Below, one piece after another: positions 2,721 through 38,845 of a DNA stretch of 52,150 nt. Each line of letters opens with the position of its first letter. The first letter of the stretch is position 1. The stretch spans positions 66,030-118,179 of the forward strand of contig NW_004797614.1 in assembly GCF_000002075.1 (NCBI RefSeq), in the 5' to 3' direction. The notes under the pieces are model-generated. The model did no database searches and was not told the DNA's origin. It was given only the letters and a program-made list of their open reading frames with translations. The stretch comes from Aplysia californica (Eukaryota). Both the position numbers and the translations under genes were made by a program.

Positions 2721-2975
2721 TTAACTCAGCCAGGTCAGTTGTTTTTTAATAGTAGATGTCTCCGTGGCTAGCATTTTTCTGTGACTGATCGTGCTGTAGT
2801 CGAAAATGAATAAAGATCTATTGTTTCCATCTCCAAGATATGAAACAACATCGTCTCAGGGTGAAAAAACACTGGAATGGCTTTTGTTGAAGTGTTTATA
2901 ACATCTGGTTGTTGGTTGCTGTATGACGCAGTAGCGGCCAGCACATCATTAGGACACCATTAAGAGTACTCTGTT
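2721..2975 (-). pseudogene. Pseudo-exon B, a diverged paralogue of pseudo-exon A (repeated in each unit)
   Basis: Reads QSTLNGVLMMCWPLLRHTATNNQML*...(frameshift)...FSP*DDVVSYLGDGNNRSLFIFDYSTISHRKMLATETSTIKKQLTWLS*. The terminal TAA aligns exactly with that of copy A. Confidence 0.5.
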
Positions 2976-3964
2976 ATAGCAGGTATTTTTTTAAAAAACG
3001 CTCAGGATTTTCAAAGACCCATAAACAAACGAAGTGACACGAGCTTAAAAAAACCAAAAGTCTTTTGTTGACGTTGAAATCAAAACAGTGCGGTTAGGCT
3101 AGAGGGATATCGGGCAGAACAAATTAATGAGCAAGGTAATAGGCAGCTACCAGAATTTTGAGTAAGAAATTACTTAAATGAAAATTCATTACCTGGAAAA
3201 CTACATTTCAGCTTCATGACAAAAAGTATAGAATTCNNNNNNNNNNNNNNNNNNNNNNNNNNNNNNNNNNNNNNNNNNNNNNNNNNNNNNNNNNNNNNNN
3301 NNNNNNNNNNNNNNNNNNNNNNNNNNNNNNNNNNNNNNNNNNNNNNNNNNNNNNNNNNNNNNNNNNNNNNNNNNNNNNNNNNNNNNNNNTGGGAGATGTT
3401 GTTTGAAAGTTGAAAAAAGTCTGCCTGTAAGTATGCATCTGTGTCAATTTTCTGTGAGAGGCTGATAACGAAATTTTACAGAAAACTGAACAACAGTTAG
3501 TAACAAAAACAAAATGAAAGGTGTTTTAGAGGACAACACGAGGGAATAGCTTAATTAAGTGATCAAGGGAACTGCACATCGCGTGACTTGTTCTCAAGGT
3601 TAAAGAAAACCAAACTTCTTCACCCATTAATTCTTGACCTAAAAGTTTATAACATTTGGATGCAAATGAAAGGATTCAAGTTGTATTTGCATCGATTAAA
3701 AAGTTCTTACTTTTTAAGCCCCTGAAAGTCTGTTCCATTAATGGAGCGCTGTGTACGAGAGGTTGCGTGCTTTTTCGTATGTGTGTGTGCTGGGGGGGGG
3801 GGTATGCCGTATGCAATAGAATGCATATCTCAGACAGGTCACAATAAAAACAAAACTAAAACTAAGGAGGCCATTTCCTGTTTTTAACACAATATCCAAG
3901 TGCACAGAGTGTATCTGTTGGGGAAATACAATTTTTACAATAAAATAATGATTTTAAAGCAAGA

Positions 3965-4742
3965 ACTTCTTTGGCGGTGCCGTCTTTTCTTGAAATGTTC
4001 AGCAATACTGATTGCAATGGGTCTTGCTTCTTGTTTTAGTTCAGTTCAAAGATTGTTCAGATTTTCCTCCTCATTTATTGATATTATTCTCATAATTTAT
4101 TTTATGTATTTTGATTAAGGTAGCTTTGTCTGTTTCTAAGTTGTTAATTTCTCTGTGTCGCCTACTTTTCCATGGGGTTTACTTTGCTTTGCTACTCCTC
4201 AAAGAAAACTGCTCTTTACGGATGTTGTAGACAACATCCCCAAACACCTCCAGACATTGACGGTAATTGTTGTTGCCCAGCTTTGCCTGAAGTACTCAAA
4301 TGATGAAAGATTTTGCCAGGATCCTTTTGAGTTGGGAGGAAGAAAATCATTCTGCGACATATGGTTTGTGACATTCCTCAATCTCCAACAGTCTACGTCT
4401 GCACGATACTGTGAACTTGATCCATTCCGTGGTTTTCCGATGTCTTATCTGTGGGTACATAGTGCTGCTGTTGAGAGCTTGGTTGTGTGGCACAACACAT
4501 GTTTGTCCTGTGAACCTTTCTGCATTTATGTATTTTGGTTGGGCTACGGGCATTCTAACCTTCCAACCTATTGGAGTTGAAATAATCCTTACCGTGTGAT
4601 TTGGAGTGGTATTTGCACAACGCTACACTTCGAGCAGGAAACAAAAACATGTCTTAGTAATGAGATGCTATACAGACTTCTGAATGGAGTTACAAAACAT
4701 ACCGATGAAATAAAACTACATTGTTTTTTATGTTGGCATCAT
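3965..4742 (-). mobile_element. Decayed 5' ORF region of a Hero/R2-superfamily (RLE-type) non-LTR retrotransposon; shortened to ~425 bp in units 2-9
   Basis: Broken minus-strand translation: SCSKCSV...TR*GLFQLQ..GRLEC (N-terminal zinc-finger-like), HKPY../PPNSKGSWQNL, KLGNNNYRQCLEVFGDVVYNIRKEQF...PWKSRRHREINNL, EEENLNNL*TELKQ...AEHFKKRRHRQR. This resembles, as I recall it, the pre-RT region of Hero-clade elements (FGDIVY...F...SRRQ.E...L...AE..RKRR). Many stops and frameshifts; no RT domain in the window. Confidence 0.6.
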
Positions 4743-4820
4743 CGCCTTTTCCCTCTCAGTTTCCACGGGCTTGGGACCGTCTCAGGGTACACTGTACACC
4801 GAGGCCTGATTAAAAAGACG
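4743..4820 (-). ncRNA. Twister ribozyme (type P1), copy 1
   Basis: RNA: CGUCUUUU U^AA UCAG GC CUCGGUGUACAGUGUACCCUGAG ACGG UCCCAAGC CCGU GGAAA CUGA GAGGG AAAAGGCG. P1 is CGUCUUUU/AAAAGGCG, P2 UCAG/CUGA, P3 a hairpin, P4 ACGG/CCGU. Loop UCCCAAGC and the GAGGG segment match the rice twister core as I recall it and supply both pseudoknots. Predicted cut between 4812 (U) and 4811 (A). Confidence 0.9.
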
Positions 4821-5647
4821 GCGCTACCGAGCGCTCACGTCTGGGGTATGTTAGTTGTTAGTCAGTTTAAGAATGTTAGTGTTATGGGTTGGGTCAGTCA
4901 ACAAATTGGATGTTAGAAATTAGTATATTTTGCTAATTAAAGTAAGTTATAGCTACAGTTTGCATTCTAGTGATTTAACGATTGAGTAGTTGTTATTGAA
5001 ACAGCTGAAAAAAGACAAAACAAAGTAGCCGATTAAACCAAGCGCTGCCCCCACAGTGGCTGGAATAATTTCGGCTCGTTAGTAACACATTAATGAAAAC
5101 ACAGAAATGCACGTACAAGACAAGACATTTCAGTGTTAGATAAAATGGAAACTTTTTAGTTACTGTGAGACAACTATGTTAGTAAAGTAAAATAGAGAAA
5201 ATGCTGTGTCCACTTCGTAGGTAGCAGGTCCCCCCTCAGCGGTAGTGAGGGTAACAACTCACCAGCAACATGTGTAAAGTCCTCGTCAACTCCCCATTAC
5301 TCACATGATGACTTCAGCTGGTGATGTACAGGCCCTGAGCTTGCCTTGGTGTGTCCAAGACACCTGCTTCCTGCCTCATTGAGTTTTCTGTTGGTTACGA
5401 CAAACACGAGTGCAAAATATGTGTCGTTGGGTGGACAAATTTGTAAGTAAAGTAAAAGTTAAAGTAGTGTAGTACATTTCAAAAACCAAAATAGCAATTC
5501 AATTCAATTATTAGGTGAATTAGGTAAACGGAAATGGGTGAAATATAAGAAAACTAGAAACAACTTCAACACCATATTTTGTTAGAAAGTGCTAAAATGA
5601 AGAAAGAAAAGAGGAAAAAAAGTATGCAAATACAGCACTTGCACTCG

Positions 5648-7170
5648 TTACAGAGAGTCTATGATTACCCTGAACTGCTGAAAGCGCTCACGAAGGAATT
5701 CCAGGAGATGGCAGACTGAAAGTCGGAGTCGTGGGTTGTTCTGTACAAGCCTGTAGAGCACAAACCTGTGGAGTAAGCAAAAATACTAAGATAAATAATC
5801 GGCAACCTCAAGTGAAAGCAAGTATTCATATTATGGTAAATGGAAATTTCTGAATATTCTACGTAACAGACTACAAGTATGTATTTTCTTTAAAAAACCA
5901 ACATATTACTATTTTATTTTTCATTTACAAGGAATCAACAGCACTCATCTAAAAGTAAAGAAAGCTGCATTGGGTTAGGATCAAAAGTAAAGAATGTCTC
6001 GTTACCTGAAGAAGCCCAAGAGCGGCATTAGGGTTCTGTCGGATTTCACAGCGTGCAGAAGATCCTCTCCATCGCGAGGTTTTCGTTTGAAGACAAGAAA
6101 CCACAGCGTTGCTCCAAGTGCGTACGCGTCCGTCTGTAGAGAATAAGTGGAAAAAAGAGTTGGTCAATAGTGAGCAAATGGTTCCAAGCAACAGCATATT
6201 GCTGCAGTATACAAAGACCTTCAGGGAGCACACAGAAAAAAAGAAAGGGAAAATACAATTATCTACTAGTACGCAATAGTGACAAACAAGATTACACCAG
6301 ACAAACAAAGAAAGGATGTTATGCATATTATAACCCAATAACAAAAGCCACAGCGCATTTACAATTTTAAAATAAAATTACTTGTTTACAACAGAATAAA
6401 AACATACAATAAATTTACAGCAGAAACAAAGCCACAAAAACATACCGACAGACAAACAAACAAACCAAACATCAGGACAACTTTTACACAACATTAAACT
6501 TAAACAAATCAAACACGCAAATAAACAAGCTCACTAAGTAGAAAACTCTGCAGTTACTCACCAGAAAAGGATCTACGGTGATGTCAGTCTGGATCTCTGG
6601 AGCGAGATAGCCTTTTGTTCCGAGTACGTTCTTGCTGCTCACTCTGTTTTGTCCGTGTGCCAGAAGGCGGGACATTCCCAGGTCACCGAGAATAGCGTTG
6701 TTGGATTCATCCAGGAATACGTTGGCAGGCTTCACGTCCCCGTGTACAGCCCACCTGTTGTGAAGATATCTCAGTGCACAGGCGGTCTGCACGAAGCAGC
6801 GCTCTAACTGCTCCCTGTTGAGACGGTGACGCGCATCATGCAAAGATCCTCGTGAGCACAGAGGCATGCAGATAGCTACAAAGTCCTTGCACTTTACTGC
6901 CCAGTCCATCTTCATGATGTGCGGATGCGAAGCGTAGTCCATGAAACTGATTTCGTGAAAAATCTCCAGCCAACTGTCCCGGCCTTGGCAGTCTGTGAGA
7001 CGTATCTTCTTGATGGCCTTGCGAATGGAGTTGTCGTCTTCCATTGCCGCTTCCAGAACTTGAACCGGCGTGATCGTCTTCTGGCACAGAACGCGCACTT
7101 GCCTCATCTTCACGGATGACCAAAAGTCACCAGAAATGAACTTCACCAAAGGAACTGAAGAACTTTCCAT
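5648..7170 (-). CDS. Atypical non-RD Ser/Thr-type protein kinase, copy 1 (284 aa, 3 exons)
   Basis: Exons 7170-6562 (donor GTGAGT, phase 0), 6133-6006 (acceptor TCTCTACAG, donor GTAACG, phase 2) and 5765-5648 (acceptor CTCCACAG, stop TAA). Motifs: KAIKK, alphaC HEI, HGDVKPANV, DLGMSR, GTKGYLAPE, TDAYALG, NPRLRLS. Confidence 0.9.
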
Positions 7171-7256
7171 ACTTGAAAATTCACGACAGATGTTGAGAAA
7201 CGATACTCAGGCACACTGAAAAAGCAACGACCTCTCACTGTAAAAGCGTTACGGTG

Positions 7257-7327
7257 AACTGGAGGATGTCCAGGTCGGCTGACTTTATATTCCCTGTTGC
7301 TCCTCCCTTTCCCCTATCACCGCCAAT
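7257..7327 (-). promoter_or_regulatory. Pol II core promoter of the kinase gene (TATA + Inr + CCAAT); same layout upstream of copies 2-8
   Basis: TATAAAG at 7289-7283, Inr-like CCAGTT with A at 7260 (29 nt from the TATA start), and an inverted CCAAT at 7323-7327 (~-65). Implies a ~90-nt 5' UTR. Confidence 0.7.
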
Positions 7328-9591: not shown

Positions 9592-9669
9592 CGCCTTTTC
9601 CCTCTCAGTTTCCACGGGCTTGGGACCGTCTCAGGGTACACTGTACACCGAGGCCTGATTAAAAAGACG
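9592..9669 (-). ncRNA. Twister ribozyme (type P1), copy 2
   Basis: Identical to the 78-nt motif at 4743-4820. Confidence 0.9.
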
Positions 9670-14419: not shown

Positions 14420-14497
14420 CGCCTTTTCCCTCTCAGTTTCCACGGGCTTGGGACCGTCTCAGGGTACACTGTACACCGAGGCCTGATTAAAAAGACG
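14420..14497 (-). ncRNA. Twister ribozyme (type P1), copy 3
   Basis: Identical to copy 1. Confidence 0.9.
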
Positions 14498-19291: not shown

Positions 19292-19369
19292 CGCCTTTTC
19301 CCTCTCAGTTTCCACGGGCTTGGGACCGTCTCAGGGTACACTGTACACCGAGGCCTGATTAAAAAGACG
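19292..19369 (-). ncRNA. Twister ribozyme (type P1), copy 4
   Basis: Identical to copy 1. Confidence 0.9.
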
Positions 19370-24141: not shown

Positions 24142-24219
24142 CGCCTTTTCCCTCTCAGTTTCCACGGGCTTGGGACCGTCTCAGGGTACACTGTACACCG
24201 AGGCCTGATTAAAAAGACG
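24142..24219 (-). ncRNA. Twister ribozyme (type P1), copy 5
   Basis: Identical to copy 1. Confidence 0.9.
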
Positions 24220-29010: not shown

Positions 29011-29088
29011 CGCCTTTTCCCTCTCAGTTTCCACGGGCTTGGGACCGTCTCAGGGTACACTGTACACCGAGGCCTGATTAAAAAGACG
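29011..29088 (-). ncRNA. Twister ribozyme (type P1), copy 6
   Basis: Identical to copy 1. Confidence 0.9.
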
Positions 29089-33849: not shown

Positions 33850-33927
33850 CGCCTTTTCCCTCTCAGTTTCCACGGGCTTGGGACCGTCTCAGGGTACACT
33901 GTACACCGAGGCCTAATTAAAAAGACG
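33850..33927 (-). ncRNA. Twister ribozyme (type P1), copy 7 (one C>U change in P2)
   Basis: Plus-strand G>A at 33915 turns a P2 C-G pair into a U-G wobble; otherwise identical. Confidence 0.88.
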
Positions 33928-38767: not shown

Positions 38768-38845
38768 CGCCTTTTCCCTCTCAGTTTCCACGGGCTTGGG
38801 ACCGTCTCAGGGTACACTGTACACCGAGGCCTGATTAAAAAGACG
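38768..38845 (-). ncRNA. Twister ribozyme (type P1), copy 8
   Basis: Identical to copy 1. Confidence 0.9.

Follow-up and report, generated by a model that had tools for sequence, protein, structure and literature searches.

The sole role found in the literature for the twister ribozymes of animals is a tie to retrotransposition. In Perere-3, an RTE element of Schistosoma mansoni, a twister variant forms the 5' end of the element, and the 5' strand of its P1 stem is supplied by variable target DNA, according to the published description (PMC8501958). Roles of self-cleaving RNAs in host genes rest on few cases, such as CPEB3 and Clec2. In the host gene family Clec2, a hammerhead follows the stop codon in the 3'-UTR and is predicted to detach the mRNA from the sequence beyond it, and the HDV-like ribozyme of CPEB3 and the intronic hammerheads of amniotes are conserved host-gene ribozymes near splicing signals, as one account summarizes them (PMC6765202). 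No paper on a twister in Aplysia or behind a kinase family was found in the literature search; published supplementary hit lists may include the loci described here, and the main text of a 2026 bioRxiv survey makes no mention of Aplysia or molluscs.

The DNA analysed in this paper, referred to as the window, is a stretch of 52,150 nt from Aplysia californica (contig NW_004797614.1, positions 66,030 to 118,179). It contains a predicted twister under clear purifying selection. In two distant clades of a host kinase family, such a twister occupies a fixed place behind the gene, and naturally broken copies serve as controls. Judged from the sequence, host-linked retention of an active ribozyme is quite probable. 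As the main reading, to which a probability of roughly one half is given, the twister would cut the kinase transcript shortly after the predicted last splice acceptor and thereby set a tail-less 3' end. The positions of all features are displayed in Table 1.

Table 1. Positions of the kinase exons, the predicted twisters and their parts, and the downstream elements in the window.
Feature	Position	Strand	Remarks
Kinase exon 1	6562..7170	(-)	Pfam Pkinase, E 5e-27; 99% to P0004
Kinase exon 2	6006..6133	(-)	splice sites conserved in 7 paralogues; matches P0004
Kinase exon 3 with stop codon	5648..5765	(-)	conserved splice sites; matches P0004
Tract with 5 ACTAAY motifs, branch-point-like	4850..5083	(-)	motif count
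Predicted 3' splice acceptor AG	4841..4842	(-)	29 nt before cut
5-bp hairpin directly 5' of P1	4821..4834	(-)	invariant in 9/9 units
Twister, unit 1	4743..4820	(-)	type-P1; Rfam RF03160, E 3.7e-12
P1	4820-4813/4750-4743	(-)	8 bp, one U-G
Predicted cut	4812^4811 (U^A)	(-)	Rfam alignment and presumed twister chemistry
P2	4809-4806/4759-4756	(-)	can form in unit 1
P3	4803-4781	(-)	long; one U-C mismatch
P4	4780-4778/4767-4765	(-)	can form in unit 1
Pseudoknots	4775-4773/4753-4751 and 4805-4804/4770-4769	(-)	both can form
Twister, unit 2	9592..9669	(-)	identical to unit 1
Twister, unit 3	14420..14497	(-)	identical to unit 1
Twister, unit 4	19292..19369	(-)	identical to unit 1
Twister, unit 5	24142..24219	(-)	identical to unit 1
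Twister, unit 6	29011..29088	(-)	identical to unit 1
Twister, unit 7	33850..33927	(-)	one change, P2 C-G to U-G
Twister, unit 8	38768..38845	(-)	identical to unit 1
Twister, unit 9	43649..43726	(-)	identical; kinase side of unit rearranged
Spacer	4519..4742	(-)	common only to kinase-locus paralogues; outside dispersed repeat
Decayed N-terminal RLE-clade non-LTR ORF fragment	3850..4518	(-)	via L178, tblastn E 3.9e-7
Right part of ~2-kb non-autonomous DNA transposon carrying the fragment	3623..4518	(-)	right end 3623

The window consists of nine tandem units of ~4.85 kb with one predicted twister in each (9/9), and a kinase exon-1 ORF is present on the minus strand of eight units, the ninth being rearranged on its kinase side. 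The twister of unit 1 matches the twister-P1 model at 4747-4816 of the minus strand, and model positions 1-68 of 68 are covered. Its score of 58 bits lies below the Rfam gathering score of 67.2 bits, and a search of the window at the gathering threshold gave no match. The genome-wide Rfam search, which scored 62 of ~35,000 candidates, gave no twister match above 67.2 bits, and the twister counts in this paper are consequently lower bounds. The columns U10, A11 and G67 agree with the Rfam consensus; we take U10/A11 to be the U^A cut site and G67 the catalytic G. The predicted cut lies 836 nt past the kinase stop codon in unit 1. The first-pass annotation had described the twister stems as intact, with a single variant among the nine copies (33915), and this description holds: all four stems and both pseudoknots can form, and the variant, equivalent to 4808, leaves a U-G pair in P2. 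The 5' strand of P1 and the preceding GCGCU-CGGU-AGCGC hairpin, also noted at that time, are indeed present and invariant throughout the nine units.

Pairing was also counted in 26 genomic twister variants, and a search model was built from 26 genomic twisters. Per helix, 93-100% of the cells are paired, pseudoknot T2 is paired in 26/26, and T1 reaches 98.7%, 12 rows having U-A in place of C-G. Two-sided (compensatory) changes across lineages can be seen in P1, P2, P4 and T1. Overall, 95.8% of the cells are paired, compared to 30-59% in slid controls; a shuffle test on the same pairing is inflated by related rows. The folding energy of the whole region is no better than that of shuffles (z 0.0) and is uninformative.

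The kinase of the window has a public model in Aplysia californica, P0004 (99% identical), which starts at the second Met, at 7107. Its dN/dS is 0.24-0.35 in five pairs. Most kinases have the motifs HRD and DFG; the window clade (6484-7206, minus strand), whose kinase activity is putative, has HGD and DLG instead. Public names are inconsistent across the paralogues (NUAK2-, CDC5- and ppk34-like). The proteins P0009-P0011 and P0028 are placed within two clades, A and B, and the clade-B kinase is ~30% identical to the window kinase of clade A; the root support for A and B as sisters is 79/81, which is short of showing sisterhood. P0009 and P0011 are clade-A kinases from other sources; as they are continuous across the position of intron 1, they may derive from spliced RNAs of related species. 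When metagenomes were searched with the kinase alignment, a single weak locus was obtained, and it has no twister. Several further features lie upstream of kinase starts: an internal duplication (1862-2342 and 2743-3236, ~67% alike) ahead of each start in the window, a TATA-like motif near 7290 (minus strand), and a minisatellite directly before the start in the C127 clade (L091 8300-8700).

According to their core sequences, the twisters near kinases can be divided into two lineages. The exact 14-nt core of type A occurs 46 times in the genome, and 40 of these occurrences lie within 12 kb 3' of a clade-A kinase on the same strand, most of them at 1.8-2.1 kb. The chance of such proximity is ~0.0006 per core, the copies not being independent. 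Of the six unlinked cores, one is a doubtful match, two are degenerate copies and one belongs to unit 9 of the window. Seen from the other side, a twister is located downstream of 40/52 clade-A kinase hits, one dead copy counted. At 20 kinase loci without the exact core, the 26-variant model finds a twister at three, and the remaining loci are for the most part truncated, broken or gapped at the expected place, so that absence there is not scorable. The second core, lineage B, also occurs 46 times: 19 lie within 12 kb of exon 1 of a clade-B kinase, 4 more follow exon 2, and for 23 no kinase exon was found in the DNA examined, many of them being near assembly gaps. Two intact lineage-B twisters (C60, C711) that are kinase-free in the DNA examined are 96% identical to a linked copy. 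Since the copies are duplicates, these figures represent about six sub-branches and not 90 events. One twister per unit is seen in the arrays on C344, C170, C934, C127, C436 and C2028, and solo and divergently oriented copies (C804, C343, C326) retain it as well. From this distribution, it is likely that the ribozyme belongs with the upstream kinase gene and not with the neighbouring relic.

Other arrangements were also observed. In lineage B, the 3' module is tandemly duplicated at several loci (L117, L123, G000:C815:163150-176736, C102, C1589), giving several twisters behind one kinase or arrays in which no kinase was found. A third small twister group (C13, C116, C134, C180, C384) showed no link to a kinase; its members (L107, L108, L124, L125, L126) are without P3 and have no kinase nearby. 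Some of them are accompanied by a second degenerate copy 220-470 nt away, and L108 has a 1067-aa repetitive ORF upstream.

In the first-pass annotation, a Hero/R2-like coding relic immediately 3' of the twister was regarded as its decayed parent retrotransposon. The decay itself is evident: every frame of 3965-4518 contains 6-12 stops, the relic of units 2-9 breaks off at the position equivalent to 4318, and 15/201 relic sites vary between units. The non-LTR identity is reached indirectly. The relic gave no direct match to Pfam, the protein database or an intact RLE family (E 0.01), and its relative L178 extends into RT, zinc-knuckle and RLE sequence and has a match (E 5e-72) to an intact RT element of 1122 aa; because of this continuation, the relic can be assigned as a fragment of an RLE-type non-LTR element. 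The Hero label is presumably appropriate. The immediate adjacency was not borne out, as no dispersed repeat copy aligns to 4742-4519. The repeat homology starts at least 225 nt from the twister, or ~300 nt after it in undeleted paralogues, and unit 1 is without ~250 bp between 4518 and 4528 that are present in two older paralogues. Since dispersed copies align only from 4518 downwards, the region is composed of a ribozyme, a non-repeat spacer and a relic.

Decayed relatives of the relic exist across the genome, and most are parts of a ~2-kb repeat, 1,985 bp in L177, with CCC...GGG ends and short terminal inverted repeats. It is flanked by TTAA or decayed variants, no copy having a perfect TTAA on both sides. 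The repeat resembles a non-autonomous DNA transposon by which an RLE N-terminal fragment was captured, and this carrier may be piggyBac-like. In the element (3623-4518 of the window; L177 4650-6640) an internal inverted repeat was observed, and about 20 old copies were examined. Of the kinase paralogues, only those on C344, C464, C170 and C287 were found to have the relic, and these form one young sub-branch; in C804b an intact twister and spacer are followed by the far flank without the relic insert. With the 26-variant model, no twister was found in 22 dispersed relic-family loci or in 20 loci of related, older and intact RLE elements, including full-length ORFs. A young intact RLE-type non-LTR family (L222-L231, e.g. 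G000:C198:1062262-1065627), with a 1122-aa ORF in dozens of near-identical copies, was also observed, and no Rfam ribozyme was found at its 5' end. Because the relic is absent in C804b, the RLE loci have no twister and the 5' strand of P1 is conserved, the twister is likely older than the relic beside it.

Within the window, 1/78 twister sites and 15/201 relic sites are variable (Fisher p 0.048), and conservation among nine young units is weak evidence, as had been cautioned from the start. Older paralogues provide more. An older copy on C344 differs from the window at 1/78 twister sites and at 13% of its flanks. In C934, C804a and C804b (3/78 each), C326 (4/78), C343 (5/78) and C92 (6/78), the twister has changed little compared with its non-coding flanks, which diverge by 23-26% (binomial P from 1e-6 to 5e-5; because they share a branch, these pairs are not independent). 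In C127, C436 and C2028, the twister differs at 6/78 sites, the introns are not alignable and fourfold sites differ by 52-58%; the dS of this clade is 1.3-1.4, with synonymous sites near saturation. Twister divergence thus rises with kinase divergence, from 1 to 3-6 to 6 of 78. Decay was found beside two of the four broken kinases. In C287, which has a frameshifted kinase, a 24-nt deletion and 8/54 changes equal the flank rate, as do the 14/78 changes in C2451, whose kinase contains stops; C326 and C92 also have broken kinases, yet their twisters remain well below the flank rate. The lineage-B copies C77, C854 and C244b have broken stems, and no kinase was found near them. Selection retaining the ribozyme is well supported by these comparisons, which carry far more weight than the nine young copies. 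The earlier proposal of selection for a host function is thus strengthened by the older paralogues, and its assumption that the decayed retrotransposon is the parent of the ribozyme is not supported.

The sequence 5' of the predicted cut is also conserved. Its last 29 nt are nearly identical across clade A, and the AG of the putative acceptor is found 29 nt before the cut in 11/12 type-A loci scanned; this acceptor is predicted from sequence and has no long U-rich tract. ACTAAY, presumably also a STAR/Quaking-type motif, occurs five times in 266 nt, a count reached by 0/5000 shuffles, and in 12 type-A loci the upstream side has 2-17 such motifs per 300 nt, the downstream side 0-1. The lineage-B copies have an acceptor-like CAG 11-91 nt ahead of the cut, and most of them have a hairpin of 5-7 bp, different in sequence and similar in place. 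In both twister lineages, the cut is closely preceded by an acceptor-like site and in most cases by a short hairpin. In C627 (lineage B), the stop codon is followed by a donor, an intron and an acceptor, which lies 11 nt ahead of the cut; the public model P0027, which may be ab initio, maps across that junction. In type A, bases of the acceptor site can pair with the 5' strand of P1, 1-4 kcal/mol more weakly than P1 itself in three loci, so splicing and cutting may be coupled. The 5' cleavage product is predicted to fold as a -11.7 kcal/mol stem-loop with a U tail. Elsewhere in the kinase 3' region, donor- and acceptor-like sites at 5260-5390 (minus strand) are partly conserved in paralogues, which suggests non-coding 3' exons; introns after the stop codon could make the kinase RNA a decay target.

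In the main reading, transcription would run from the kinase through the twister site, the predicted acceptor would be used so that a short last exon is spliced on, and the twister would cleave at 4812^4811 in the cell. The 5' product would have no poly(A) tail; its end would consist of the hairpin and a short run of U residues carrying a 2',3'-cyclic phosphate. In a further and rather doubtful extension, a spliced-in, self-cutting terminal exon would replace cleavage and polyadenylation, the hairpin and U-tract would protect the end, and pairing between acceptor and P1 would couple splicing to the cut. Three poly(A) raw-read runs of one study gave 24, 24 and 11 partly fitting reads (90-95% identity), none across kinase exons, which fits either silence in those samples or tail-less RNA and was counted for neither. 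The contig runs X4-X7 cover intron sequence and X10 one exon piece, and none contains an exon joint. Should the mRNA end indeed be formed by the cut, poly(A) sequencing would overlook these transcripts. With the conserved twister and its natural broken copies, the question of what domesticated ribozymes do becomes testable in an established neurobiology animal.

The same host-linked retention can also be read with a different purpose for the cut. As an off-switch or termination aid of the Clec2 kind, limiting the output of many gene copies, the twister would remove or pre-empt a downstream poly(A) site, or clear read-through behind an upstream one. This is possible, though less likely than the main reading. 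All of the constraint evidence fits it equally well, Clec2 is a described precedent as far as its account goes (PMC6765202), and hexamers are suitably placed: most type-A paralogues have them 87-330 nt past the cut, and in 8/12 type-A loci an AATAAA or ATTAAA stands between stop codon and cut, the remaining 4, the window included, having none there. Because of these upstream hexamers, many copies could be polyadenylated before the cut, and the general rule that no poly(A) signal lies upstream of it was dropped. Such a function leaves unexplained why an acceptor-like site and a hairpin are conserved 5' of the cut, and in unit 1 of the window the first hexamer is only reached 710 nt beyond the cut, in the stretch lost from units 2-9. 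A role in the arrays themselves, in which array read-through is cut into unit-length RNAs with 5'-OH and cyclic-phosphate ends that become circles or spread as a selfish kinase-plus-ribozyme cassette, is unlikely. The arrays of six contigs do have one twister per unit, cassettes are scattered over many contigs, and tandem ribozyme repeats are described as yielding circular RNAs in animals (PMC7229834). Against it, solo and divergent copies keep the twister, dispersed copies retain their introns, no RT or transposase ORF was seen in the unit, and the dN/dS of the kinase is about 0.3.

The remaining explanations dispense with retention for the host. A 120-nt module recently transferred or converted among paralogues, or a small mobile element, could imitate selection, since between the window and C127, C436, C688 and C2028 almost only 4742-4862 aligns (91-93%), and some copies of lineage B are not near a kinase. 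The module is nevertheless embedded in continuously aligned flanks in six paralogues, its divergence grows with that of the kinase and its differences mostly keep the structure; the same pattern is repeated in lineage B, and two pseudogene copies decay. This origin of the conservation is thus improbable. Descent of the twister from the adjacent Hero/R2-like element, as a 5' ribozyme kept after the decay of the latter, is very improbable. The relic is of RLE type, and twister and relic share strand and order with Perere-3 as described (PMC8501958). The spacer, the position of the relic within a DNA transposon in one sub-branch, the empty site in C804b and the 42 twister-free element loci argue against it, and the 5' strand of P1 is conserved, unlike the variable target DNA reported in that description of Perere-3.

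The ribozyme of the window agrees with the twister-P1 family (RF03160) over the full model, in P1-P4, in the two pseudoknots and in the U^A site, self-cleavage being predicted here; it differs in its score, its long P3, its location behind host protein genes and its conserved 5' hairpin and acceptor-like site. The relic is like RLE-clade non-LTR elements and its carrier, with CCC...GGG ends and TTAA-like flanks, may be of the piggyBac-like kind, the Hero and piggyBac labels being assumed, and neither type was found with a twister in this genome. Perere-3 likewise presents an animal genomic twister with retroelement sequence downstream, and what distinguishes the Aplysia twister from its description (PMC8501958) is a P1 5' strand that is conserved and covarying and a tie to the upstream gene. 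The hammerhead of Clec2 and the twister described here are both self-cleaving RNAs, predicted in the present case, that follow the stop codon in a family of host genes. In relation to the Clec2 account (PMC6765202), the kinase twister belongs to another ribozyme class, is compact and not split, is apparently located at the start of the last exon, and exists in two kinase clades that are ~30% identical. The ribozymes of CPEB3 and amniotes are intronic in the same account, whereas the kinase twister is found beyond the 3' end of the coding sequence, in a family of many copies.
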